Shown here: one piece after another, positions 2 to 64,000 of the stretch
How positions within the stretch are numbered: the first letter of the stretch is position 1
Layout: each line of letters starts with the position of its first letter
From: Planctomycetota bacterium
GTDB taxonomy: Bacteria > Planctomycetota > UBA8742 > UBA2392
DNA length: 64,000 bases
Reading direction: 5' to 3'
Assembly: GCA_020848275.1 (NCBI GenBank)
Contig: JADLAK010000077.1
Span: forward strand, 7,606-71,605
Made by a program: the position numbers and the translations under genes
Notes under the pieces: generated by a model
Told to the model about the DNA's origin: nothing
Database searches by the model: none
What the model saw: the letters and a program-made list of their open reading frames with translations, nothing else

Positions 2-3000
2 ACGAGCTTCACGGTTGCGTTTGATCCCACAACCGCGGGCGCCAAGACCGCAACTGTGTCCTTTACCCACAATGGCACCAACACGGCCTCGCCGTTCACC
101 TTTGACGTCAGTGGCACCGGCATCACCCCGACTGTCGAAGTGCGCGAGACGGCTGTGGGCGGCACGCTGGTTGCCAACGGCGCTGCGGCGGCCAACGGTC
201 GTGCCTTTGGCAACCGCGATATCAGTGCGGGCCCGAGCGCGACCTTGACCGTCTTTGTGCTGAATACCGGCAGCAACACCATGACCCTGGCCGCCCCGAC
301 GCTGGGCGGTGCGGATGCGGGCCAGTTCGTCCTGGATACGACGGGATTCTCCACCAGCCTCGCTGTGGGCGCGAATACGACCTTCAGCCTGGCCTTTGAT
401 CCGAGCACCGTTGGCTCCAAGACCGCAACTGTCAGCTTTGCGCACAACGGCACGAACACGGGCAGCCCCTTCACCTTCGACGTCAGCGGCACGGGTATCA
501 CCCCGACGGTTGAGGTGCGCGAAACAGCGGTCGGCGGGACGCTGGTGGCAAATGGTGCGGCTGCGGCCAACGGTCGCGCTTTCGGCAACCGCGATATCAG
601 TGCGGGCTCCAGTGCGGCACTGACGATTTTCGTGCTCAACACCGGCAGCAATACCATCACGCTTGGCACGCCGACAATCGGCGGCGCCGACGCCGGCCAG
701 TTCGTCCTCAACACCGGCGGCTTCAGTGGCAGCGTCGCCGCGGGCGGGAACACGACTTTCACGGTTGCCTTTGACCCCTCTACCGTTGGCGCCAAGACCG
801 CGACGATCAGCTTTACGCACAACGGCACGAACACGGCTTCGCCCTTTACCTTCGACGTCAGTGGAACCGGCATCACGCCGACCGTCGAAGTGCGCGAAAC
901 AGCGGTGGGCGGCACGCTGGTTGCCAACGGCGCTGCGGCGGCCAACGGTCGCGCTTTCGGCAACCGCGATATCTCGGCAGGCCCGACGGCGACCTTGGCC
1001 ATCTTTGTGCTGAACACGGGCACCAATACGATCACACTTGCCGCCCCGACTCTGGGCGGCGCGGACGCGGGCCAGTTCGTGCTCGACAGCTCAAGTTTCA
1101 GCACCTCGGTTGCAGCAGGCGCCAACACCAGCTTCACGGTTGCCTTTGATCCCACGACCGTGGGCGCCAAGACCGCAAGTGTGTCCTTCACGCACGATGC
1201 GACCAACACGGCCTCGCCGTTCACCTTTGACGTCAGCGGCACGGGTATCACGCCGACCGTCGAAGTCCGCGAAACCGCTGTCGGCGGTACGCTGGTGGCC
1301 AACGGCGCTGCGGCGGCCAACGGTCGCGCTTTCGGCAGCCGCGACATTTCGGCGGGCCCGACGGCGACCCTGACCATCTTTGTGCTGAACACGGGCACCA
1401 ACACCATCACCCTAGGCACGCCGATTCTCGGCGGCGCCGACGCCGGCCAATTCGTGCTCGACACCTCAAGTTTCAGCGCCTCGGTTGCGGCGGGCGCGAA
1501 TACCACTTTCACCGTCGCCTTTGATCCGTCCACGGTTGGCGCCAAGACGGCGACTGTCAGCTTCACGCACAACGGCACCAACACGGCTTCGCCCTTTACC
1601 TTCGACGTCAGTGGAACCGGCATCACCCCGACCGTCGAGGTGCGCGAAACCGCGGTCGGCGGAACGCTGGTGGCCAATGGCGCTGCGGCGGCCAACGGCC
1701 GCGCTTTCGGCAACCGCGACATCAGTGCAGGCCCGAGCGCGACCCTGACCATCTTCGTGCTCAACACCGGCAGCAACACCATCACGCTTGGCACGCCGAC
1801 TATCGGCGGTGCTGACGCCGGCGAGTTCGTCCTCAACACCGGCGGCTTCAGCGGCAGCGTGGCCGCAGGCGCAAACACCAGCTTCACGGTTGCGTTTGAT
1901 CCCAGCACCGCCGGGCCCAAGACCGCGACGATCAGCTTTACGCATAACGGCACCAACACGGCTTCGCCGTTCACGTTTGACGTCAGCGGTACGGGCATCA
2001 CGCCGACCGTCGAAGTGCGCGAAACAGCGGTGGGCGGGACGCTCGTATCTAACGGCGCGGCGGCGGCCAACGGCCGCGCGTTCGGCAACCGCGATATCAG
2101 CGCGGGCGCGAGCGCGACATTGGCCATCTTTGTGCTCAACACCGGCAGCAACACGGTTACGCTCGGCACGCCGGCCCTGGGCGGCGTCGACGCAGGCCAG
2201 TTCGTCATCAACACCGGCGGCTTCAGCGGCAGCGTGGCCGCGGGCGCAAACACCAGCTTCACCGTCGCCTTCGACCCCAGCACCGTCGGCGCAAAAACCG
2301 CGACCGTCAGTTTCACACACGATGGCACCAACACGGCTTCGCCGTTCACCTTTGATGTCAGCGGCACGGGCATCACCCCGACCGTCGAAGTGCGCGAGAC
2401 CGCTGTCGGCGGCACGCTGGTGGCCAATGGCGCTGCGGCGGCCAACGGTCGCGCGTTCGGCAACCAGGACATCAGCAGCGGGGCAACCGCAACGTTGACG
2501 ATCTTTGTGCTCAACACCGGCAGTAACACGATTACGCTGGGTACGCCGGCGCTTGGCGGCGCCGACGCCGGCCAATTCGTCCTCAACACCGGCGGCTTCA
2601 GCGGCAGCGTCGCCGCGGGCGCCAACACGACTTTCACCGTCGCCTTTGACCCCAGCACCACGGGCCTTAAGGCCGCGACCGTGAGCTTCACCCATGACGG
2701 CACCAACACCGCGTCGCCCTTTACCTTCGACCTCAGCGGCACAGGCACTACGCCTTTGATCGAAGTCCGCGAAGCCGACGCCGTCACCGGCGTTCTGATT
2801 TCCAACGGACTGGCCGCCGCAGGCACGGCTCGCGACTTCGGCGACCAGAACGTCAGCGGCGGTGCGACCGCAGCCCTGACGATTTACATCAATAACACCG
2901 GCACCCACACCATGACGGTTGCGGCGCCGACGTTGAGCGCCGGCGACACCGGCGACTTCGTGCTGGATACCACGGGTTTCAGCACCAGCGTTGCCCCGGG

Positions 3001-49395: not shown

Positions 49396-51717
49396 ATGGG
49401 TTTGCTTGACGATCTAAACGAACAACAGCGCGAGGCGGTGACCAGCATTCATGGCCCGCTGCTGGTCGTGGCAGGCCCGGGCTCGGGCAAGACGCGCGTG
49501 ATCACCGCGCGCATCGCCTACATGATCGAGCAAGGCGTCCCGCCCTGGCGCATCCTCGCCATGACCTTTACCAACAAGGCCGCGGGCGAAATGAAGGCGC
49601 GGGTGCAGCGACTGGTCACCAACGCCGACGTTTACGTCAGCACCTTCCACAGCTTCGGCGCGTGGCTGATGCGGCGGGAGGCCGAGACGCTGGGCTATGC
49701 CAAGGATTTTTCGATCTACGACACCGACGACCGCGACAGTTTGATACGGCGCCTGATGCGTGAGGCGAATATCGATAGCTCGTTCGTGACTGCTTCGGCC
49801 GCGGGCTATGCGATCAGCGACGCGAAGAATCGCGCGATTGATCCTGCGACGTATCTGTCCGGCGCGTTCGATCCCAAGACCAAGGCCGTGGCCGAGATTT
49901 TTGCGCTCTACGAGAAAGCTTTAAAACAGGCGCAGGCGATGGACTTCGACGACCTGCTAATTAAACCGCTCGAACTTTTCACCAAGCATTCGACCGCGCT
50001 CGAAAAATACCGCGACCGTTTCTCGCACATCCTGATCGATGAGTACCAGGACACCAACGCCGTGCAGTACAACCTCGCCAAGCTGCTCGCCCAACGCGAC
50101 AAGAACATCTGCGTGACGGGCGATCCCGACCAGTCCATTTACTCGTGGCGTGGCGCGGACATCCGCAACATCCTGAGCTTCGAGCGCGATTTCCCCGGCG
50201 CCAAGGTCGTCATCCTCGGCCAGAATTACCGCAGCACCAAACGCATTGTGCAGGCGGCCGATGCACTCGTGCGCCACAACCTGGCGCGTAAAGAAAAACC
50301 GCTCAGCACCAGCAACGACGAAGGGACTCGTATCAAGGTGCTGCGCTGCCAGAACGAAACGCACGAGGCGCTGGAGATCGCGCGCGGCATTGAGAAACTT
50401 CGAGAGGAACACGATGTCCCGCTCAGCGGCGTCGCGGTTTTCTACCGCATGAATGCGCAATCTCGCGCGCTCGAACAAGGCCTGCGCGAACGCAACATCG
50501 CCTACCAGCTTGTCGGCGCCGTCGCGTTTTACCAGCGCCAGGAAATCAAGGACGTGCTGGCTTATTTAAGATTGATCGTGAATCCACGTGATGTTGTCTC
50601 TTTTGCAAGAGCACTTCTTCGCCCTTCGCGCGGCGTGGGCGAAGGGACGCTTGAGAAAATCGTGGTCGCCGCGCGCGACAGCGGCAAGACGTTGATCGAG
50701 GTCGCTCGCGATCCCGCCGCCCACGGCATTTCGCGCGTGCAGAAGAAAGCGCTGGAGGCGCTGCGCGACTTTGCGGCGATGTATGACCGCCTGTTGGCCG
50801 AACCGCTTTTCCCGATCGAAACGGTGATCGAGAAAGTCCTGCTTCAAAGCGGCTATATGCGGGCGCTGCAGCAGGATATTGACCCGCGCGCCGAGGACCG
50901 CATCGACAACGTCAAGGAATTGCTCAGCGACGCCAAGACGCGCGAACAAAATGACGCCGATCTCGACCTCTCGCGCTGGCTCGAGCAAATCGCGCTGGTT
51001 TCCGACACGGACAAGCTCGACCTCGGCAATCCCGCCGTCACCTTGATGACGCTGCACAGCGCCAAGGGCCTCGAGTTCCCGGCGGTGTTCATCGTCGGGC
51101 TTGAGGACGGCTGTCTGCCGCACGCGCGCTCGTTGCAAGGCGAGGGCGACCCCGAGGAAGAACGCCGCCTGTGCTACGTCGGGATTACGCGCGCGCAGAA
51201 GTTTCTTACCCTCACGCACGCGCGGCATCGCGAGCAGTTCGGCCAGTTCACGCGCAACGCGCCCTCGCGCTTCCTGGCGGAAATCCCGCACGAGCTTTGC
51301 GAAATCCACGACATCAGCGGCGGCCACGCCGGCTTCGCGGCCGAGTGGGATGCGGCGACGAAGTTCACGCCGCGCATCGGCGCGGAGCACCAGGCGGGCA
51401 GCAACCCCTTTGATTTCGGCGACATGCCGCCGATCGAAGATAATCCCGCGGACTTCGCGGCAGCGCGCGGCGCTGCGTCCGGGGTCCGGAGTCCGGAGTC
51501 CGGGGTCGACGGTGGTTTTCCTTCCGCTTTTGACCCAGGAGCCAGGACCACGCACACCGCACTCACGAAAGGTGATCGCGTGCGGCATTCGGTCTTCGGC
51601 ATCGGACAGGTGCTGGAGATGGTCGGCAGCGGCGACAAAGCGCGCGTGCGCGTGAGCTTCCAGGGCTGGGGCGAAAAGAACCTGGCGCTCGAATTCGCCC
51701 GCCTCGAAAAACTTTAG
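49396..51717 (+). CDS. pcrA: ATP-dependent DNA helicase UvrD/PcrA
   Basis: AGPGSGKT, MTFTNKAA, IDEYQDTN, GDPDQSIYSWRGA, LMTLHSAKGLEFP, EERRLCYVGITRA and a C-terminal Tudor-like domain (VRHSVFGIG). Confidence 0.95.
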   Translation: MGLLDDLNEQQREAVTSIHGPLLVVAGPGSGKTRVITARIAYMIEQGVPPWRILAMTFTNKAAGEMKARVQRLVTNADVYVSTFHSFGAWLMRREAETLGYAKDFSIYDTDDRDSLIRRLMREANIDSSFVTASAAGYAISDAKNRAIDPATYLSGAFDPKTKAVAEIFALYEKALKQAQAMDFDDLLIKPLELFTKHSTALEKYRDRFSHILIDEYQDTNAVQYNLAKLLAQRDKNICVTGDPDQSIYSWRGADIRNILSFERDFPGAKVVILGQNYRSTKRIVQAADALVRHNLARKEKPLSTSNDEGTRIKVLRCQNETHEALEIARGIEKLREEHDVPLSGVAVFYRMNAQSRALEQGLRERNIAYQLVGAVAFYQRQEIKDVLAYLRLIVNPRDVVSFARALLRPSRGVGEGTLEKIVVAARDSGKTLIEVARDPAAHGISRVQKKALEALRDFAAMYDRLLAEPLFPIETVIEKVLLQSGYMRALQQDIDPRAEDRIDNVKELLSDAKTREQNDADLDLSRWLEQIALVSDTDKLDLGNPAVTLMTLHSAKGLEFPAVFIVGLEDGCLPHARSLQGEGDPEEERRLCYVGITRAQKFLTLTHARHREQFGQFTRNAPSRFLAEIPHELCEIHDISGGHAGFAAEWDAATKFTPRIGAEHQAGSNPFDFGDMPPIEDNPADFAAARGAASGVRSPESGVDGGFPSAFDPGARTTHTALTKGDRVRHSVFGIGQVLEMVGSGDKARVRVSFQGWGEKNLALEFARLEKL

Positions 51718-52882: not shown

Positions 52883-54217
52883 TCAGTCGTTGGAAACGAG
52901 ACCTTTTTCGTTGAAGACGATGTCCGCGGCGTCATCTTCGCCCGCGGCGGCGCCGTCGCTGCCAAGGCATGACAACATGAAGCCGCTTTCGGTGGCTTCG
53001 TAGGTGAAGGGTTTGCCGGTGTAGGGGTCGGGCGGGACTTTGCTGCCGGTGAACTTGTCGCCAACTTCGTCGAGCGATTGCGGGTAGCGGCTGGTTTCCA
53101 GCCGGTGCATGCTCAGGGCCTTCTGGATATCGCCCATGCGCGTGAGCGCCAGCATCCACTTGGTGCGGTCGCCGGCGATGAGGATATTGCTGCCGTAATC
53201 GTAGATGCCAAATCCCGCGGCGATCACGCTGCGCAGGACGTGGCTGTCGTTTTCGCGGTCGCGGGCGACCACTTTGGCGACGCCGTCGCCGGGCAACACC
53301 GGGCTGTACCAGGTTTCGACGTTGCGTTCCGTGACGACGATGCAGGGCAAATCGAGCCCGGGCCTGACGGTGAAGGTTTCATGCCGGGGTTTGCAGTTTT
53401 TTTCGGGCGCGATGAAAACGGGCAGGTTAACGACGTCGGTCTTTTTGCCCGCGTTGCGAACCACGGAATCGGCGATGCAATCGGTGAAGACGACGCGCTC
53501 TTTTTCGCCGTTGGCAAGTTCATACTGCAGCCACTCGCCCTCGGTGCAATTGCGCAACGGAAGAAACGCGTCGTCGGCGACGGTGTAGGGTGCGAGATTG
53601 CCCTGCTTCTTGAGGAATTGGCGAATCGGCGTGTCGTCGGCCCAGCGCCACTTGGCCGCGATGCGGCCCGTGGGCGCCACGAGAAAAGCGCAGTTGGGCA
53701 GGTCAGACCAGAAGCGCTGGGCGGGTCCTTTGAAACCGTCGACCAGCACGCGCCAGTCTTTCTTGCCCGACGCCTTGATGCCCTGCGCCGCGGCCAGCGA
53801 GTCTGCGGCGCTTTTGTGCTGCTTGATCTTGACGGCGTTGTCCTTGAGGCGCCAACCGGAGACCTTGGTCTTTTCGGACTTCTCGGGGCCGTCGTCGGGA
53901 TGGGCCTCGATGGTGTAGACAAACAGGAACAGGACGTTCGCCGCGAATTCCTTGCGCAGGTTTTCCATCTCAGCGAAGTGCGAGCGGCATTCCGGCGAGC
54001 TGTGGCTGCCGAATTCGAGGAAGAGCCAGCGGCCCTGCTGCTCATGGAGAGCAAAGCGCACGCCCTCGGTGTCGGCGCACGTCAAGCGCGGGGCGATGTC
54101 GCCGACGGCGGGCGCCTCGAGGACGAATTCGGCGTCCTTGGGGTCTGTTTTCTCGGCGTAGGCGGGAACCAGCGACAGCACCGACAGGGCGACGCAGGCC
54201 GTGATCAGGTAGCGCAT
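52883..54217 (-). CDS. Exported fusion protein: deiodinase-like thioredoxin fold, unknown middle domain, and C-terminal GspG-like pseudopilin globular domain
   Basis: FLEFGSHSSPEC and VYTIEAHPDDG resemble deiodinase motifs. The C-terminus YPQSLDEVG...PPDPYTGKPFTYE...GFMLSCLGSDG...DIVFNEKGL matches the GspG paralogs at 61 kb. Confidence 0.7.
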   Translation of the reverse strand: MRYLITACVALSVLSLVPAYAEKTDPKDAEFVLEAPAVGDIAPRLTCADTEGVRFALHEQQGRWLFLEFGSHSSPECRSHFAEMENLRKEFAANVLFLFVYTIEAHPDDGPEKSEKTKVSGWRLKDNAVKIKQHKSAADSLAAAQGIKASGKKDWRVLVDGFKGPAQRFWSDLPNCAFLVAPTGRIAAKWRWADDTPIRQFLKKQGNLAPYTVADDAFLPLRNCTEGEWLQYELANGEKERVVFTDCIADSVVRNAGKKTDVVNLPVFIAPEKNCKPRHETFTVRPGLDLPCIVVTERNVETWYSPVLPGDGVAKVVARDRENDSHVLRSVIAAGFGIYDYGSNILIAGDRTKWMLALTRMGDIQKALSMHRLETSRYPQSLDEVGDKFTGSKVPPDPYTGKPFTYEATESGFMLSCLGSDGAAAGEDDAADIVFNEKGLVSND

Positions 54218-54317: not shown

Positions 54318-54830
54318 ATGGAACTGACGCTTCGTCGCCTGTCGGCTGACGCCCGGGCTGATTTCATGGCGTTGATGCAGCGCGGCTCCGAGGAATCGGC
54401 CGCTTGCCTGTGCACCGCCTATCACGGGGCGGCGCCTGAAGACGCCCCGGCCTGCCGCAACGCCTTGATGCAGGGACAACCGGACGGCTATTTGCTGTAT
54501 CGCGACGGCGCCGCCGCGGCGTGGTGCCAGTGCGGCCCCTGGGATTCCTTCAAGGTGTTTTCGCAGCGCAAGCGGCCGGGAAGCTGGGTGATCACCTGTA
54601 TGGTGGTCGCACCCCACGCACGCGGGCAGGGACTGGTGCATGCGATGCTGGCCAAGGTGTTTGATGACCTGAAGGCGCGCGGCATCAAGCACGTGCTGGC
54701 CTGTGCGCACCGGCTGGGTCCTGCGTACAGCAGCCCGCTGGCGGAATTGCCCGAGGCGGCCTGCATCAAGGCGGGAATGACCATCGAGCGCGATGACGCC
54801 GAATGTCCGCGCTACGAGATTAAACTGTAA
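54318..54830 (+). CDS. GNAT-family acetyltransferase-like protein
   Basis: ITCMVVAPHARGQGL motif A, with CLC and WCQCGP motifs. Confidence 0.75.
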   Translation: MELTLRRLSADARADFMALMQRGSEESAACLCTAYHGAAPEDAPACRNALMQGQPDGYLLYRDGAAAAWCQCGPWDSFKVFSQRKRPGSWVITCMVVAPHARGQGLVHAMLAKVFDDLKARGIKHVLACAHRLGPAYSSPLAELPEAACIKAGMTIERDDAECPRYEIKL

Positions 54831-55326
54831 CGTGGCGGGCAGGGACCTGGTTGGCGCGCAGGTCGTCGATGACCTGGTCGATGATCTCGGGCGTCAGGTT
54901 TTCGTAGTAGTCGTCGTTGACCTGCATGCAGGGGGCAGTGCCGCAGGCGCCGATACATTCGGCCTTCTTGAGCGTGAAAAGGCCGTCCTTGGTGGTCTCG
55001 TCTTTCTTGATGCCGAGTTTTTCACTGAGGTAATCGTAGAGGCGCTCGCTGCCGCGAAGCGCACAGGGCAGCGTCGAGCAAACCCAAAGCACGTGTTTGC
55101 CGTCGGTTTCTTTGCGGAAGGTCGTGTAGAAGGTGAAGACGCCCCAGACGTGTGCGGGCGGCATGCCCAGGCACTCGGCGACCAGCCCGCAGACCTCGGC
55201 GTCGACGAAACCGATTTCGCGTTCGGCCATGCGCAGCGAGGTCAGCAACGCGCCCGCAGGCTGCGGAAAGCGTTTGGCCAGCGTCTTGATGGCGTCGACG
55301 GTCTCGGGTTTGAGCGTCTTTGGCAT
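54820..55326 (-). CDS. nuoE: NADH-quinone oxidoreductase subunit E (2Fe-2S)
   Basis: VCSTLPCALRG, ECIGACGTAPCMQVNDDYYENLT and VFTFYTTF. Confidence 0.9.
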   Translation of the reverse strand: MPKTLKPETVDAIKTLAKRFPQPAGALLTSLRMAEREIGFVDAEVCGLVAECLGMPPAHVWGVFTFYTTFRKETDGKHVLWVCSTLPCALRGSERLYDYLSEKLGIKKDETTKDGLFTLKKAECIGACGTAPCMQVNDDYYENLTPEIIDQVIDDLRANQVPARHVTV

Positions 55327-55374: not shown

Positions 55375-55857
55375 CTACTTCTTTTTGCCGGCCTTGGGAG
55401 GGATGGTTTCGGTGCGGACGACCTGCTGGCGCATGGTGGCAACGCTGCGGATTTCGTCGCCGCCGTCGGTCGGCCGCAGGATCGTGGTGAGGTACATGGT
55501 TTCGCCCTCGACCACAAAGGTGACGGCGATGTGCATGCCCTGGTCGTTGACGCCGGCGACAGCGAGCACGCCGGGGTCGTCGGGGATTTCGTCGAGGTTC
55601 ACGGCGCCGTAGAGCGTCGCATAGGCGAGAATGCGCAACGTGCCGTCGGGACGCACGGCGAGCAGGCCGATGCCGCCGCTGAGGAAGGTGAAAGCGGTCG
55701 AGCTTGAGCTCTCGATGGTGATCTCGATGACTTCGCCGTCGAGGCGTTCTTGAAGTTCAGCGCGGACCAGGCCGGAGTCGGTGCCGGGTAGGTCACCGCT
55801 TCCCATCCATACGCCGAGCCATTTGGCGAACTTTCGAAGTTCTTTCCTTACCGCCAT
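55375..55857 (-). CDS. Hypothetical protein (beta-rich), paralog of upstream gene
   Basis: ELRKFAKWLGVWMG and EIPDDPGVLA, similar to 55793-56380. Start ATG 55857. Confidence 0.7.
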   Translation of the reverse strand: MAVRKELRKFAKWLGVWMGSGDLPGTDSGLVRAELQERLDGEVIEITIESSSSTAFTFLSGGIGLLAVRPDGTLRILAYATLYGAVNLDEIPDDPGVLAVAGVNDQGMHIAVTFVVEGETMYLTTILRPTDGGDEIRSVATMRQQVVRTETIPPKAGKKK

Positions 55858-56380
55858 TGCGTTTATCCTTCGCGCGTTGCGTGTCGTCGTCGTTTGGGTC
55901 GTCGTCCGTGTCTTCGTTTTCCACTTCGGGCGCTGGGTCGCTGGGCGCCCTGAGGCGCTCAAGCGTCATGCTGCTGCGGGCCAGCACTTCGCCGCCGGCT
56001 TTGCGCACCACGGTCGTTACCAGCATCTGTTCGCCGTCGAGCACCATCGTGACTGACATTCCGGTCCCCGACGCATCAATCCCCTCCAGCGCCAGCACCC
56101 CAGGGTCGTCCGGCATCTCGCGCAACACCATCGCGCCGTAGGTCGTTGAATACGCCACCAGTTGCAGGCCGCCATCGGGCGCTACGCAAAGCAGCGAGAT
56201 GCCGCCGTTGAGCAAGCCCGGCGCGTCATCAAGGACATTTTCGGCCACGATCTCGATGCAATCGCCGCCCAACCGCTCGCGAATTTGCGTGCGGACATGG
56301 CCGCGCTTTGAAAGCGCGAGGTCGCCAAAGCCCTGCCAGGTGCCGAGCCAATTTGAGAATCGTCTTAGTTCAGGTCGCAT
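55793..56380 (-). CDS. Hypothetical protein (beta-rich), paralog of downstream gene
   Basis: ELRRFSNWLGTWQG and EMPDDPGVLA. Its tail overlaps the next start by 65 bp. Confidence 0.7.
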   Translation of the reverse strand: MRPELRRFSNWLGTWQGFGDLALSKRGHVRTQIRERLGGDCIEIVAENVLDDAPGLLNGGISLLCVAPDGGLQLVAYSTTYGAMVLREMPDDPGVLALEGIDASGTGMSVTMVLDGEQMLVTTVVRKAGGEVLARSSMTLERLRAPSDPAPEVENEDTDDDPNDDDTQRAKDKRNGGKERTSKVRQMARRMDGKR

Positions 56381-58263: not shown

Positions 58264-58818
58264 ATGGACCTCAGTCGAGAGACCGATCAGGATCTCGTCG
58301 CCCGCGTGCTCAAGGGCGACCAGGTCGCATTTGAGGCCATCGTCGAACGTTTCCGCAACCAGGTTTACGGCCTTGCGCTGCGCAAGGTCTCCGACGTCGC
58401 CGTCGCCCAGGACATCACGCAGGACACGTTTGTCATCGGTTACGAAAACATCTCGCGCCTCAAGGCCCACGACCGCCTGAAATCGTGGCTGATGGGCATT
58501 GCCGCCAACCTGATCCGTGATTACTACAAGCGGCGCAAAGTCGCGGGCCTGTCCGAAGAAATGGACGTCCCGGCGCTGCCCTCAGACCCGCTGGATGGGC
58601 TCGAACAACGCGAACTCCACGAGCTTTTGCACAAGGCGCTGGCGCAGTTGTCGGAGCGCTACCGGGCGGTTTTGATCAAACGTTACCTTGAAGGTCTAGA
58701 TTATCCGCAAATCGCGGAAGAACTTGGCCTAAGTGTTGGCGCTGTCGAGGTTTGCATGCACCGCGCGCGCAAGAATCTCGCTGCCGCCCTCAAGGACTAT
58801 ACGCCGGAGCTTGAATAG
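58264..58818 (+). CDS. ECF (sigma-70 group 4) RNA polymerase sigma factor
   Basis: AQDITQDTF, FKSWL-like region 2 (LKSWLMGIAANL) and region 4 YPQIAEELGLSVGAVEVCMHRAR. Confidence 0.92.
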   Translation: MDLSRETDQDLVARVLKGDQVAFEAIVERFRNQVYGLALRKVSDVAVAQDITQDTFVIGYENISRLKAHDRLKSWLMGIAANLIRDYYKRRKVAGLSEEMDVPALPSDPLDGLEQRELHELLHKALAQLSERYRAVLIKRYLEGLDYPQIAEELGLSVGAVEVCMHRARKNLAAALKDYTPELE

Positions 58819-58879
58819 GTGGGTTTAGGCGTAAGGGATACACGCCGCCATCCACATATTGGTGCACGAAGGCAAAGAA

Positions 58880-60784
58880 ATGAACCGCGAACGCATAGAA
58901 CTTCTGATGAACCGCTCCCTCGACGGCGCCGCCAGCCGCGAGGAGAAGGAAGAGCTTGCCCGCGCGCTCAAGGCCGACCCGGTGATCAAGACCGAGTTTG
59001 ATGAACTCGCCGGCGTCCACAACTCACTCAATTCACTGTTCACCAAGCTCGCGCTGCCCAAAGACTTCAACAAGCGCGTGATGAGGCGCGTGCAGCCGCA
59101 GGACATCCCGTCTGACATGAACATGCAGGCGGTGCAGGCGGTCTCGGAAACGGCGCCGCTGATTCAACTGCCCCTGCGCCGCAGCAGCCGCATGCAGGCT
59201 GCGGGTACTCCCGCCGGCCGCAAGTCAGGCCGGCTGATTCCCATGTTTGTCTCTATCGGCGCGGTTTCGGCCGCCGCCGCGTTGTTGATCGTTATTGGCA
59301 TGGTTACCGGCATCATCGGGACGGCCAACACCCCGAAGACCGGACCGGCCTCCGATTATCAGGCAGAGCGTAGCGGGGGTGTTCCCCGCGTCCCCGGGCA
59401 TCACCGCACCGACCCGGGGGTCGCCAAGCCTGAACGGGAAGCTTCGGACGGCAATAAATCGCCCTCCGAAGCTTCCCCTGGCATTACAAAACCCGAACCC
59501 GCGCCGGTAAAGCGCGACGGCCCGGTGAACGCGCAGGACGGCGCGAAGCCGGAAGTTCGCAATCCTGAGCCGAAGGTTGGCCCGGAAAACCCGCAGCCGG
59601 AAGAGCCCGTTGTCCCGGAAAGCCCGCTGCCGGAAGAACCGGTTACGCCTGAGCCCAAGGGTGAAGTGGTCGAGAAGCCCGTGACGCCGGCCGAAGGCCC
59701 GACCTCGACGCAGGGTCGCAGGGTGATCGGCACCATGGCGGTGATCACGGGCAAGGCGCATTACCAGGCCGAAGACGGCAAATGGGCGGAGTTCGCGCAT
59801 GGCGCTGACGTGCGTGAGGGCGCCAATGTGCGCACCAGCCAGGGCGGCATCGCGATTCTGCGCCTGCCTTACGGCGCGGTGGTCATGGGCAATGATTCCA
59901 ACGTGCAGTTGATGGAAGAAGCGCATCGCCTGACCCTGGTCAAGGGCGAAGTTACCCTTGAACGCGGCCGCCTCGACGCCGGTGAAGACGGCGCGAATGA
60001 CGGCGCGCTGGAAGCTATTTTTGACGGTTCGACTTTGCGCCTCGAACAGGGCACAACCCTGATTGAGCGGCGCAACAACAAGAAGGTCGAAATTCACCAG
60101 ATTATTGGGGGCTGCGCCGTGCTGCGTGGCGCAGATGTGATGGCCGTTTCCAACGGCCAGATGGTGGCGGTCAACGCCGGCAGTGCATTCGAAAAGCCGG
60201 TGTCCCGCGCATACCTGCTTGAGGGTTGGGCGGGCAAGGCGCGTGCTGAGATGGTGATGTCGGCCATCAGCGAAGGCCTGGCGTCGCGTAACGCCAAGTC
60301 TTCGGAGGCGACATCTCTTCGCGGCGCGCTTGAGCGGGTGTTGCGCCTGGAGCTGTCGAGTGACCTGACGTCGCTGTTCCTGGGCTCGGTTCTTTCGAAG
60401 GAAATGCTGGTCAAGGAACTTCCCGCGCCGAGCTTCAAGGTCAGCGACATGCTGGCGATGCTGGGCACGGTGGATTCCGCACTGGCCGAGCAGAAGGCCC
60501 GTCCGAAAGAGGACATGAGCTACGACGTGCTGATGGAATTTGCCGTCGCGGCTCTCGATAGTTCCGACACGGTTGCGCAGTGGCAGGCCGCCTTCAAGCG
60601 CCTCTGCAGCGGCTCCCCTGAAGAAATCCACAGGAACACGGGCAGCAAGAAGAGCCCGTTCCCGACCCGCCCGCTTCCCAACAGCACTGGTTGCGGCAAG
60701 TGTCCCTGCGGCGGCGGCCCCAAGGCTGAGCGCGCGACCAGCAAGCCCAAGGGCAAAGAAAGCAAAGACGGCAAGAACGATTAA
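58880..60784 (+). CDS. Putative anti-sigma factor with TM helix, Pro-rich linker and FecR-like domain
   Basis: Directly follows the sigma gene. N-terminal LMNRSLDG...EE, a TM segment, FecR-like VREGANVRTSQGGIAILRL, and C-terminal CGKCPC. Confidence 0.7.
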   Translation: MNRERIELLMNRSLDGAASREEKEELARALKADPVIKTEFDELAGVHNSLNSLFTKLALPKDFNKRVMRRVQPQDIPSDMNMQAVQAVSETAPLIQLPLRRSSRMQAAGTPAGRKSGRLIPMFVSIGAVSAAAALLIVIGMVTGIIGTANTPKTGPASDYQAERSGGVPRVPGHHRTDPGVAKPEREASDGNKSPSEASPGITKPEPAPVKRDGPVNAQDGAKPEVRNPEPKVGPENPQPEEPVVPESPLPEEPVTPEPKGEVVEKPVTPAEGPTSTQGRRVIGTMAVITGKAHYQAEDGKWAEFAHGADVREGANVRTSQGGIAILRLPYGAVVMGNDSNVQLMEEAHRLTLVKGEVTLERGRLDAGEDGANDGALEAIFDGSTLRLEQGTTLIERRNNKKVEIHQIIGGCAVLRGADVMAVSNGQMVAVNAGSAFEKPVSRAYLLEGWAGKARAEMVMSAISEGLASRNAKSSEATSLRGALERVLRLELSSDLTSLFLGSVLSKEMLVKELPAPSFKVSDMLAMLGTVDSALAEQKARPKEDMSYDVLMEFAVAALDSSDTVAQWQAAFKRLCSGSPEEIHRNTGSKKSPFPTRPLPNSTGCGKCPCGGGPKAERATSKPKGKESKDGKND

Positions 60785-61049: not shown

Positions 61050-61445
61050 ATGCGCAAAAATCGCGGTTTTACGCTGATTGAACTGATGGTGGTCGTCGTG
61101 ATCCTCGGCATCATCGGTTCTATGTCGTTTGTGTTTGTGTTGCCGCATATCGGCACATCGACCTGGACGCGAGCCAAGGTCGAGATGGGCGAGATCGTCA
61201 AGGCGCTCAACCACTACGCCATGGGCCACAGCGGTGAATATCCCGCCGGCCTTGTGGACATCGGCGGCCAGTTCAACGGCAACGCGCCGCAAGACCCGTT
61301 CTCCAAGGCCGATTACCAATATGAACCATCAGGCAGCACCTTCCGCCTGACCTGCCTGGGCAAGGACCAGGCCCCCGGTGGAACCAAAGACGAGGACAAG
61401 GACATCGTCTTTACCGAGCGTGGGCTGGAATCGCCGGTGCCTTAA
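61050..61445 (+). CDS. gspG: Type II secretion major pseudopilin GspG-like, copy 1
   Basis: Prepilin motif RG/FTLIELMVVVVILGII, plus DPF and LTCLGKDQAPGG. Confidence 0.8.
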   Translation: MRKNRGFTLIELMVVVVILGIIGSMSFVFVLPHIGTSTWTRAKVEMGEIVKALNHYAMGHSGEYPAGLVDIGGQFNGNAPQDPFSKADYQYEPSGSTFRLTCLGKDQAPGGTKDEDKDIVFTERGLESPVP

Positions 61446-61940: not shown

Positions 61941-62594
61941 TTGAAAGGCCCGCGCGTGTTTTTCAATCCGCAATCCGCAACTTGTCTGACGAAGCCTTGG
62001 CGAAGTCAGATCCGCAATCGGCAATCGCGACGGGCCATGACGCTGGTCGAGCTCGTGGTGGTCGTGTTGATCATGGGCATCAGCGTCATGATCGTGCTGA
62101 TCGCCGGCCACCTCTCGCTTCGCGACACCGAAGAACTCAAGGCCCAGGCGCGAACCCTCGCGGGTTTCCTTGAAACCGTGCGCCTCAACGCCGCCGTCAA
62201 AGGGCGCTCGTTTTTCATCGAGTACAACCTCGACGAGCAAAAATATTTTGCCTGGGTTCCCAAAGAACCCAAAGAGGGCGACGTCATCGACCCGGAGTCC
62301 AATGACGCGCTGGTCCAGGGCGTCGAGCTGTTCATGCCCAACCGTTACAACGCCGCCGGCCAGCGCGAGTTCTCCACCTGGATCGACCGCGTCGCCATGG
62401 GCGACGGCAAGGGCCAGTCCCGCGGCCTTGTGAAAATCGAATTCACCGCGCGCGGCGGCTCGCACTGGCACTACGTCTATTTGCGCAACAAGAACAACGA
62501 GTTCTATACCATCGAGGTCAACCCATTCACGGGCCTGGCCGAGGTCCATCCCGGCGAACTCAAGCCCGAGCCGCCCGAGAAGGTGCGCCGATGA
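61941..62594 (+). CDS. Minor pseudopilin GspH-like
   Basis: RRA/MTLVELVVVVLIMGI. The start is uncertain (TTG 61941). Confidence 0.7.
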   Translation: MKGPRVFFNPQSATCLTKPWRSQIRNRQSRRAMTLVELVVVVLIMGISVMIVLIAGHLSLRDTEELKAQARTLAGFLETVRLNAAVKGRSFFIEYNLDEQKYFAWVPKEPKEGDVIDPESNDALVQGVELFMPNRYNAAGQREFSTWIDRVAMGDGKGQSRGLVKIEFTARGGSHWHYVYLRNKNNEFYTIEVNPFTGLAEVHPGELKPEPPEKVRR

Positions 62595-63265
62595 TCCGCC
62601 GTCGCACATCCGGTTTTGCCCTGATCGAAGCCCTTGCGGCGGCGATGATCATGTCCGTGGTGCTGCTCACGCTGCTGGAGGTGCGCAACAACAGCATCCG
62701 CTGGTTCACGCTCAGCGGCGACCAGTACACGGCGGCGTGGCTTGCTGAAATGAAGATGAACGAGTTGATGAGTGAGAAACTGCCGGATCCGGAGGACGAG
62801 GAGAGTTTCTCCATGCAGGACAGCGGCAACTTCGCCGAGCTCGATGGCCGCGTGAACGACCTCAACGCGGCGGCCAGTGAAACCTGGAAAGAACGGGTCT
62901 ACTTCGAGAAGTTCACTTTCGAGTGGTCGAAGGAATTGATTTTCGTCGGCCAGGAATTCACAGGGTTGCAATCCGACCTTGAAGCCTATGAGCCTGAACT
63001 CGACGAATACGGCGAGCCCACCATCGACGACCCGCGCAGCAAGCCCATGGTGCGCATCGTGCGCATTACTCTGACGCTCAAGCGCCCGCTGGCGCGCGGT
63101 GTGGCCAGCGACGGCTCGGACGAAAGCGACGAAGAGTGGGAAAAACGCCGCACGCTCAAGCTCGTTACTTACGTCGATCCTTCGACACTGTTTGGCGCCA
63201 AGGGCGCGGCCGAGCCCGATCCCGCGCCGCCGCCCGCCCCGCCCCCAGCCCCGCCGCCCGGATGA
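62591..63265 (+). CDS. Minor pseudopilin GspI-like
   Basis: SG/FALIEALAAAMIM. ATGA overlaps at both ends. Confidence 0.7.
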   Translation: MIRRRTSGFALIEALAAAMIMSVVLLTLLEVRNNSIRWFTLSGDQYTAAWLAEMKMNELMSEKLPDPEDEESFSMQDSGNFAELDGRVNDLNAAASETWKERVYFEKFTFEWSKELIFVGQEFTGLQSDLEAYEPELDEYGEPTIDDPRSKPMVRIVRITLTLKRPLARGVASDGSDESDEEWEKRRTLKLVTYVDPSTLFGAKGAAEPDPAPPPAPPPAPPPG

Positions 63266-64000
63266 ACTACCAACGCCCACATCAACGCCGCGCTTTCAGC
63301 CTGATCGAGCTGGTCGTGACGCTGTTTGTCGTGAGCATCCTGATGACCTGCGTGGTGGCGATCGTGATGGGAACGGTCGAGGCCAAGATCCTGGTCGAAG
63401 CCGAAACGCGCGCGCGCAAACTTGGGCCGGCAATTGTCGAGACCATCGCGCGCGACCTTCGCAACGCCTGGGCCTCGGGCCCAGACAAGGAAGTAGAGCT
63501 TTCCGGCAGCTTCTTTGTCGCCAAGACCCACGGCGACGACGACGCGGCCGAGGATGAGCTCTGGTTCGTCACCACTGTTGACAGCTACATGCTTTACCAG
63601 GGCCTGCACAGCGAAATCACCGAGGTCGGCTATTACGTCAAGGACAACGAAAACGACGACGGCCTCAAGAGCCTGTACCGGCGCGAGGATTATTCCGTCG
63701 ACAAGGACCCGTCCGATGGGGGCCTGGGCGTCAAGCTGACCGACCGGCTGATCAGTTTCAATGTGCGTTACTACGAGCGCCCGACTAATGCAGACGACCC
63801 CACGGCCTATGACGAAGTGCTCAAGCCCGGCGGCTTCACCGAAAAACACGACTGGGACGCCAAGGACAGCCGCAAGCTGCCCTATGCGGCGCGCATCGAG
63901 CTGGTGCTGGACGTGACCTCGACGGACTCGCACACGCGGAACAAGGACCGCCGCATCGGCGTTTATAACGCAATTGTCCGTTTGCCGGATTATCCGGAAC
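63262..64000 (+). CDS. Minor pseudopilin GspJ-like, 3'-truncated (absent from the ORF track)
   Basis: ATG 63262: MNYQRPHQRRA/FSLIELVVTLFVVSILM...IARDLRNA...EVGYYV...LYRRE. Open to the window end. Confidence 0.75.
   Translation, partial: MNYQRPHQRRAFSLIELVVTLFVVSILMTCVVAIVMGTVEAKILVEAETRARKLGPAIVETIARDLRNAWASGPDKEVELSGSFFVAKTHGDDDAAEDELWFVTTVDSYMLYQGLHSEITEVGYYVKDNENDDGLKSLYRREDYSVDKDPSDGGLGVKLTDRLISFNVRYYERPTNADDPTAYDEVLKPGGFTEKHDWDAKDSRKLPYAARIELVLDVTSTDSHTRNKDRRIGVYNAIVRLPDYPE

Follow-up and report, generated by a model that had tools for sequence, protein, structure and literature searches.

A deiodinase-like selenoprotein relative apparently fused to the head of a GspG-type pseudopilin in a Planctomycetota genome

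Here we describe a gene found in a 64,000-nucleotide stretch of DNA from a Planctomycetota bacterium (assembly GCA_020848275.1, contig JADLAK010000077.1, positions 7,606 to 71,605 of the forward strand); this whole stretch is called the window below. The gene is present in a single copy, without similar DNA elsewhere in the genome, and its product joins an exported thioredoxin-fold domain of the deiodinase type to an all-beta middle domain and, at its C-terminus, to the globular head of a GspG-type pseudopilin. The coordinates of these parts and of the genes around them are collected in Table 1. An initial annotation, made from the letters alone, did not recognise this architecture. It is unique in the protein sets searched: neither the 1.84 billion representatives nor the 5.8 billion clusters contain a second protein with both parts.

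The N-terminus has the features of an exported protein, namely a signal peptide with a basic n-region, a hydrophobic core and an AYA cleavage motif. A lipoprotein start at I-T-A-C (residues 5-8) is ruled out, as the Cys comes after just 7 residues, with the hydrophobic core running on past it. Further downstream, T4_deiodinase (PF00837) matches residues 52-181 (E 2.5e-13; 50.3 bits against a Pfam gathering cut-off of 27), and the alignment with mouse Dio3 (4TR3, E 2.9e-4) places FGSCT-C-PPF of Dio3 opposite FGSHS-S-PEC. The string VYTIEAHPDDG at residues 100-110 aligns with IYIEEAHPSDG of Dio3 and carries the Y-x-x-E-A-H-P-x-D-G motif that follows beta3. The NCBIfam model NF038285 (deiodinase_rel) gives 53.9 bits, below its curated cut-off of 250, and is matched at profile positions 174-323 only. 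FGSHSSPEC and VYTIEAHPDDG had been read in the initial annotation as signs of an exported, deiodinase-like thioredoxin-fold region; both strings are present in the reading frame, and the assignment holds.

At the other end of the protein, T2SSG (PF08334) matches residues 349-434 (E 2.8e-7; 31 bits against a Pfam cut-off of 21). The window also contains two complete GspG paralogs. The last about 98 amino acids, aligned in BLASTP over residues 345-440, are 46% identical to the second of them (E 2e-25) and 40% identical to the first (E 2e-18). The close alignment of the last about 90 residues to these paralogs had been noted before, and the pairs of strings given for it (YPQSLDEVG/YPQSLDDVG and DIVFNEKGL/DIVFTERGL) lie inside the alignments, which are far beyond chance. 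Further, a sequence profile of the head family matches the solved GspG structures 2KEP, 3GN9, 3FU1 and 4LW9 (E 1.7e-10 to 3e-7). The score against TIGR01710 is 21.6 bits, below the equivalog cut-off of 88.85. Near the C-terminus, at the place of the calcium-binding loop of GspG, the head reads CLGSDGAAAGEDDAADIVF, compared with CLGKDxAEGGxxxPDKDIVF in the family; the invariant G, D and DI are kept, and the changes include K76S and G81A (head numbering).

The head lacks the N-methyl-Phe helix, as the initial annotation had also said. Neither N_methyl (PF07963) nor TIGR02532 matches the fused protein, while both local GspG paralogs match both models. The head begins at the alpha1-C helix (residue 350), without the hydrophobic alpha1-N part, and the sequence ahead of it, GIYDYGSNILIAGDRTKW, contains no prepilin leader and no G|F-T-L-x-E motif for cleavage and N-methylation. 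Without that motif and that helix the protein is not expected to be cleaved, methylated or polymerised.

Domain parsing with AlphaFold, one of the checks proposed in the initial annotation, gave three confident domains and a low-confidence linker. The AlphaFold2 model of the full protein, based on the combined alignment, has a predicted local distance difference test value (pLDDT) of 79 and a predicted template modelling score (pTM) of 0.70. The thioredoxin fold covers residues 40-195, with a pLDDT of about 88-95 outside a disordered loop or insertion at 105-132, and an all-beta domain of at least eight strands follows at residues 225-335 (pLDDT about 90-96). After the linker (residues 337-349) the head opens with a helix (350-375), to which a second, short helix and four strands are added. 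In a separate model of residues 196-444 the head reaches a pLDDT of 95-98 at a pTM of 0.48, which indicates that it is not fixed relative to the beta domain. The MAFFT alignments that fed the models (A6 and A8) have about 8-10 stray residues in each head row, and alignments A3-A5 and A7 contain misplaced fragments. When the full model was searched with Foldseek, the matches were to the thioredoxin domain only: ResA and DsbE (TMt 0.74-0.82, E about 2e-7) and also Dio2 and Dio3. For the head, Foldseek gave only weak matches to type IV pilins (6xxd, probability 0.87) and recovered no GspG structure.

Table 1. Position of the fused gene, its parts and the neighbouring genes in the window.
Feature	Position	Strand	Basis and remarks
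Whole fused gene	52883..54217	-	444 codons and a TGA stop; open reading frame list and translation
Signal peptide of the general secretory (Sec) type, residues 1-21 (MRYLITACVALSVLSLVPAYA, followed by EK)	54155..54217	-	Read directly from the sequence
Deiodinase-like thioredoxin-fold domain, residues about 34-195	53633..54118	-	PF00837, 4TR3, Foldseek, AlphaFold2
Remodelled active-site motif FGSHSSPEC, residues 69-77	53987..54013	-	Alignment to relatives and codon reading
All-beta middle domain with invariant LPGDGVA motif, residues 196-336	53210..53632	-	Kept in all relatives
Disordered linker and fusion junction, residues 337-349 (GIYDYGSNILIAG), then D-R-T-K-W	53171..53209	-	pLDDT below 50
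GspG-type pseudopilin head, residues 350-444	52886..53170	-	PF08334, BLASTP, family profile, AlphaFold2
NuoE-like 2Fe-2S thioredoxin-like ferredoxin	54820..55326	-	PF01257, E 3.6e-47; conserved upstream neighbour here and in relatives
Complete GspG paralog 1 (N_methyl and T2SSG)	61050..61445	+	Profile matches
Complete GspG paralog 2 (N_methyl and T2SSG), closest intact relative of the head in the genome	61514..61921	+	Profile matches, BLASTP
Minor pseudopilin genes (GspH/I/J-like), gene order as in relatives	61941..64000	+	tblastn, N_methyl matches

The first two domains belong to a selenoprotein family. Among the 5.8 billion protein clusters only seven relatives were found, all 265-273 residues long and none with a T2SSG domain. 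All seven begin at Met84 of the fused protein and end near its residue 350. This odd start is explained by a selenocysteine codon: at each locus an upstream reading frame of 76-80 codons with a signal peptide is joined to the called gene via one in-frame TGA. The full product has 345-365 residues, a signal peptide equivalent to that of the fused protein and the motif FGSYT-U-PPC. In a six-frame search the gene was found in 14 of 40 related genomes, each time with exactly one in-frame TGA; the window copy is the sole one without a TGA and also the sole one with a head. Complete selenoprotein genes are present in at least 14 genomes (L001:5713-6822, L002:5761-6801, L003:5734-6807 and L006-L016). 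Public gene calls store the relatives only as an N-terminal frame of 76-80 residues and a fragment of 265-273 residues from the next Met: this Planctomycetota family sits in the databases only as halves cut at the selenocysteine codon.

After the TGA the relatives have a 7-bp hairpin at +18 to +34 nt (alignment A2), which is likely a bacterial selenocysteine insertion sequence (SECIS). Its covariation is modest or weak; the stems vary by genus (CCATTTC/GAAATGG, CGCC/GGCG and GGCTC/GAGCC), and only one pair has a double compensatory change. The middle domain had been called unknown, and to the extent that it has no Pfam match and no significant fold match in the PDB (Foldseek; weak SH3/Tudor/Hfq-like barrels only) this is correct. 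However, it is not specific to the fusion; it is conserved in all relatives and is an integral part of a two-domain selenoprotein family.

Bacterial deiodinase-like UxxC selenoproteins are a known but uncharacterised family, with no function known for any bacterial member (Zhang et al. 2005, PMC1088965; review PMC13188914). The fused protein has the same thioredoxin fold (PF00837) and the FGS..(U/C)P and Y..EAHP motifs in common with them, and its own orthologues contain selenocysteine in U-P-P-C. It differs in having Ser in place of selenocysteine or Cys, and in the head, which is unique to it; the all-beta domain it shares with its close relatives.

The residue aligned with the selenocysteine of deiodinases is Ser74, and its codon (53996-53998) is TCG and not TGA, as the initial annotation had read it. 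The fused gene has no in-frame TGA, and therefore not the arrangement of UGA and SECIS seen in bacterial deiodinase-like selenoproteins. Compared with the invariant FGSYT-U(TGA)-PPC of the relatives, four of the nine motif positions differ (Y72H, T73S, U74S and P76E), while Cys77 at +3 is kept, giving S-P-E-C here against U-P-P-C there. Since all 14 relatives have the TGA, Ser74 is evidently the derived state in this clade. A genome-wide loss of selenocysteine as the cause is ruled out by the presence of selA (536 bits), selB (306 bits) and tRNA-Sec; as the machinery is retained, the change to serine is specific to this gene.

With serine at this position, redox catalysis based on selenocysteine or cysteine is impossible there for the product, which in this is like the many natural Ser-type proteins of the wider family. 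In a sample of full-length homologues from an exhaustive search, 24 have Ser and 35 have Cys at the selenocysteine position, with a few Ala, Thr and Glu. The combination of Ser with Cys at +3 was found in no homologue in this sample other than the fused protein. The idea that Ser means a dead enzyme is softened by these numbers, as Ser is frequent at the position in full-length homologues. Ser-type deiodinase-like proteins are, by this count, a common natural class in the wider family, and within its bacterial part there is a large, predicted non-redox branch. About a third of the sampled full-length bacterial homologues (P0027, P0030, P0036, P0039, P0042 and others) have Ser at the selenocysteine/Cys position, and many sampled deiodinase-like homologues have long N-terminal repeat-rich regions high in Gln, Arg and Glu.

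The gene order in relatives bears on how the head was acquired. In the genera g3, g4 and g6 one or two gspG genes lie 110-190 nt downstream of the selenoprotein gene on the same strand, followed by minor pseudopilin genes and dnaE; nuoD, nuoE and a gene of 218 codons precede the selenoprotein gene. Synteny with nuoE upstream of the deiodinase-like gene is seen in L001, L003, L010, L011 and L014-L016. As the selenoprotein gene adjoins gspG in these genera, while the window keeps the linkage to nuoE and has an in-frame GspG head at the place of gspG, a fusion of neighbouring genes is the simplest origin.

The junction itself can be followed in the DNA. The ends of the relatives align to residue about 350 of the fused protein, and they stop at ...YEPEKWKGK. 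In nucleotides the closest relatives read ...GAG AAG TGG AAG GGC AAG TAG, gspG reads ...GCC AAG TGG... (DKAKW) at the start of alpha1-C, and the fused gene reads ...ACC AAG TGG ATG...; the six nucleotides AAG TGG (Lys-Trp) are thus present at both parental ends and at the junction. Most likely the fusion arose by a deletion that joined two neighbouring genes. Such a deletion, possibly at the AAG-TGG microhomology, would have taken out the selenoprotein gene's stop codon, the spacer of about 110-190 nt and the first about 30 codons of the downstream gspG. Later rearrangements would have moved the rest of the pseudopilin operon away. In the same lineage selenocysteine was replaced by Ser and the active-site motif was remodelled.

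A number of observations weigh against this history, or against the fusion as such. The fusion is a singleton, known from one protein on one contig of one metagenome-assembled genome (88% complete); neither another genome of its genus nor another assembly with the junction was found. A Foldseek search with the model of residues 196-444 gave no match at E <= 1e-3 for either the head or the middle domain. Approximately unbiased (AU) tests reject neither an origin from an 'a'-type copy neighbouring the selenoprotein gene (p 0.16) nor one from the paralogs in the window (p 0.26). In genus g7, the closest by sequence, and in L002 the selenoprotein gene is not beside gspG, and the two genes may therefore have been apart already in the ancestor of the genus to which the window belongs. 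Finally, the locus has been rearranged more than once.

Some of these points fit a different origin, in which a copy of one of the genome's own gspG paralogs, or of some other gene for a pseudopilin, supplied the head and was placed behind the deiodinase-like gene at its 3' end. We regard this as possible but doubtful. The highest identity of the head is to the second GspG of the window, the AU test does not reject a grouping of the head with the window paralogs, and the g7 gene has no gspG beside it. However, the two window paralogs are both 'b'-type copies, 63% identical to each other, and the head is about equally distant from everything; in the tree it forms a branch of its own, 1.46 substitutions per site long where the median is 0.12, whose position the tree does not fix. 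Further, the window keeps the linkage between nuoE and the deiodinase-like gene, which in the fetched loci is found only where gspG follows that gene and is absent from L002 and from the available flanks of L006-L008. A deletion between neighbours is also the mechanistically simpler event.

Could the join have been made by the assembler, which would have connected the two parts or dropped the stop codon, the spacer and the prepilin helix? The source genome was assembled from a metagenome and has 111 contigs, no more than one assembly shows the junction, and the region is rearranged relative to relatives, with nuoD at the edge of a 3.6-kb contig. When the junction-spanning segment was compared with metagenome and species-genome contigs, only distant GspG heads were found and no second copy of the junction; a word-indexed search with the head region alone returned only the fused protein, a search that is too insensitive. 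Against a mis-join stands the lack of a trigger: no part of the reading frame has a similar copy elsewhere in the genome, down to a word size of 11, and the shared microhomology is just 6 nt. In addition, the GC content at third codon positions (GC3) is 0.87, 0.79 and 0.83 in the three parts of the reading frame, similar to the neighbouring genes. The flanking genes, for a helicase on the left side and NuoE on the right, agree in their lineage profile: identity to the family is 63-72%, and identity to the sister family 50-55%. The join keeps the reading frame, and the head, being 46% and not about 100% identical to a sampled gspG, is by this comparison not a copy of any intact gspG sampled, nor a mis-joined copy of a known gene. 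An assembly or binning artefact is therefore unlikely, and we consider it highly improbable. A frameshift artefact is ruled out as well, since the 51 nt between the last motif of the deiodinase family and KW are too short for a prepilin leader and helix in any frame.

Next, we asked which positions are conserved in the two halves. Twelve relatives share 82 invariant columns, and 64 of these are retained in the fused protein; an alignment of thirty GspG heads has 27 columns with a conservation of 90% or more, and 21 of them are retained in the head. Retention of conserved columns is thus about 78% in both halves, while the consensus is matched at only 35-39% of the variable columns. This non-uniform distribution of substitutions is the pattern left by purifying selection and suggests that both halves are under selection. 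In the N-terminal half the invariant positions that have changed are concentrated around the active site. This half is not obviously accelerated, since nuoE and gspH, like the deiodinase part, show the genus to be an outlier, and with that taken into account the N-terminal part has diverged no more than they have.

These numbers also bear on the possibility that the protein is a neutral relic, in which the deletion destroyed one gspG copy and left its head in frame, the head has no function, the loss of selenocysteine marks a lost activity and the protein is drifting. That the fusion is a singleton, that the head has a very long branch, that the catalytic selenocysteine is gone with four of nine motif residues altered, and that two intact gspG genes remain, making a third copy dispensable, would all agree with this. 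Drift agrees less well with the retention of conserved over variable columns in both halves, with a frame open across 444 codons and with the confidently modelled head. Ser-type homologues are numerous and full length elsewhere, and helix-less heads are retained in other stable families. On balance we consider a neutral relic unlikely. With moderate confidence we instead read the locus as a single genuine gene, formed by fusion of genes that are neighbours in relatives, whose product is exported to the periplasm and has three modules. It is apparently a selected, real-looking but singleton fusion of two known families.

The surroundings of the gene have other features. A complete cluster of gspG1-G2-H-I-J lies 7 kb from the fused gene on the opposite strand, and its minor pseudopilins are 50-53% identical in tblastn to the genes downstream of gspG in L001 and L003. 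A gene for a UvrD/PcrA helicase (49396-51717) flanks the head end of the fused gene. In genus g7 (L037, G010:C5:38000-54500) the order on one strand is gspG-gspG-H-I-J, about 4 kb, and then a UvrD/PcrA helicase; the placement of the helicase there and in the window points to several rearrangements around the pseudopilin operon. No support was found for a head derived from a gene beside the helicase, as in g7, and the path of rearrangements cannot be reconstructed from synteny, as there are too many events. The nuoD orthologue is cut at the edge of the 3.6-kb contig (G000:C33:1-606) with unrelated genes after it, and the nuoD-nuoE pair is split in the assembly. Upstream of nuoE, at the position of nuoD in relatives, lie two paralogous genes on the reverse strand (55375-56380; about 160 and 195 residues, 48% identical over 87 residues) with overlapping reading frames and no Pfam match. 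They are not homologous to the 218-residue gene between nuoE and the selenoprotein gene of relatives. Directly upstream of gspG1, on the forward strand (58264-60784), are a gene for an extracytoplasmic function (ECF) sigma factor (Sigma70_r2/r4, Sigma70_ECF) and one for a Pro-rich protein of 641 residues without a Pfam match. The latter is probably an anti-sigma factor, and the pseudopilin operon may be under ECF control.

GspG heads without the helix are also found in other proteins. The same genome codes for an exported protein of 452 residues (G000:C6, L031:703-2061, reverse strand) in which a signal peptide is followed by four helix-less GspG heads in tandem (PF08334 four times, E 4e-37). 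It has an orthologue at L033:1033-2511 (reverse strand), and most genomes of the family encode such a protein, of 450-490 residues, in frames of 450-560 residues. The neighbours of the tandem-head gene (a TauE exporter, a DsbH-like thioredoxin and a cadherin/Big_9 adhesin of 2768 residues) show no link to a type II secretion system (T2SS). A search for other proteins with a C-terminal GspG-like head, also proposed in the initial annotation, found the P0119 family, a kinase-WD40-head protein and others. In P0119 (432 residues; 9 members from several sources) the head is C-terminal and is preceded by an unknown domain and a signal peptide; in P0029 (431 residues) the head is in the middle of the protein. 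P0130 (2002 residues) combines a Ser/Thr kinase and WD40 with a C-terminal head, P0158 (263 residues) has a zinc ribbon, a transmembrane segment and a head, and P0021 (157 residues) has a head on a transmembrane anchor that is not of the prepilin type. As helix-less heads recur in other architectures, the GspG head is evidently a mobile module, and only its deiodinase-like partner is new here. In the same genome (G000:C12, L032:about 1504-1900, reverse strand) there is further a GspG-like protein of about 130 residues whose N-terminus is a plain hydrophobic anchor (RPYSLLLGGLLAIALVVLLIRG) and not a G-F-T-L-I-E prepilin motif.

Compared with these proteins (P0119, the fourfold tandem-head P0017/P0022, P0130 and P0158), the fused protein likewise carries the head as a module outside a pseudopilin, and several of them are also built with a Sec signal peptide in front and the head at the C-terminus. 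Their partner domains are others, none of them deiodinase-like, and no function is described for any of these proteins. In common with the major pseudopilins GspG, PulG, EpsG and XcpT, the modelled head has the alpha1-C helix and the beta-sheet, and its sequence has the YPxSL, PxDP, CLGxDG and DIVF motifs. In contrast to them it is C-terminal on a Sec-exported protein and lacks the prepilin leader, the G-F-T-L-I-E motif and the hydrophobic alpha1-N helix. The TlpA/ResA/DsbE oxidoreductases, the best structural matches of the N-terminal domain, are likewise exported thioredoxin folds with xxC at the N-terminus of a helix; the fused protein differs in S-P-E-C in place of C-x-x-C, in the deiodinase-type insertion at 105-132 and in two extra domains. 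A pilin-type domain and a functional globular module are also combined in one polypeptide in PilB of Streptococcus sanguinis, a pilin with a vWA module (10.1101/2021.01.27.428410). However, such modular pilins keep the N-terminal polymerisation helix and show the extra module on the filament, while in the fused protein the extra modules are N-terminal and the pilin part is filament-incompetent.

After export and cleavage of the signal peptide, the mature protein would be soluble in the periplasm; it would not be processed by prepilin peptidase and would not enter the core of a pseudopilus. On its flexible tether of 13 residues, the head would most likely contact GspG subunits, the pseudopilus or other head-bearing proteins head-to-head, and this binding would keep the module of thioredoxin fold and beta domain close to the machinery of type II secretion. 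In its purified form, a pseudopilin domain that lacks the hydrophobic helix self-associates in vitro with a Kd of about 216 nM (10.1101/790865), and by analogy such binding between heads is plausible. The genome contains secretin-like genes.

The initial annotation had proposed that the head is a soluble pseudopilin-mimic tag which could dock an enzyme-like cargo on a pseudopilus or T2SS. On this reading the head might act as a secretion signal: by mimicking a pseudopilin it would bring the protein onto the pseudopilus, or the tip of it, during growth, and the protein would leave the cell through the secretin as cargo. The helix-less heads, C-terminal or internal, of several unrelated exported proteins (P0119, P0029 and those with tandem heads), the flexible tether, the secretin-like genes and the ability of soluble pseudopilin domains to self-associate are in line with this. 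On the other hand, an origin by adjacency is ordinary and needs no functional rationale, and the neighbourhood of the tandem-head gene has no link to T2SS. Pseudopilin mimicry is not known among T2SS substrates. We find a secretion or docking tag of this kind very unlikely. A broader proposal, which we offer as speculation and judge to be quite unlikely, is that helix-less GspG heads form a modular docking domain in Planctomycetota that recruits periplasmic proteins to the T2SS endopilus, or caps or regulates it; the fusion would then be Rosetta-stone evidence that the exported deiodinase-like selenoprotein, whose gene immediately precedes gspG in several genera, works physically with the pseudopilus.

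If the fusion is merely the neutral by-product of a deletion, it is an ordinary example of the fusion of neighbouring genes. Independently of how it is read, the analysis has yielded a mis-annotated selenoprotein family and evidence for pseudopilin heads circulating as independent modules. If the protein is real and functional, it is a natural experiment, in which a soluble protein of the periplasm keeps, on a tether, a pseudopilin head freed from its polymerisation helix. Taken with the further architectures that contain such heads, it would suggest that pseudopilin heads have a life outside filaments, an idea that is apparently undescribed. It would also tie a bacterial family of deiodinase-like selenoproteins, without a known function since 2005, to T2SS pseudopilins by both neighbourhood and fusion, and so provide a first hypothesis for where these proteins act.

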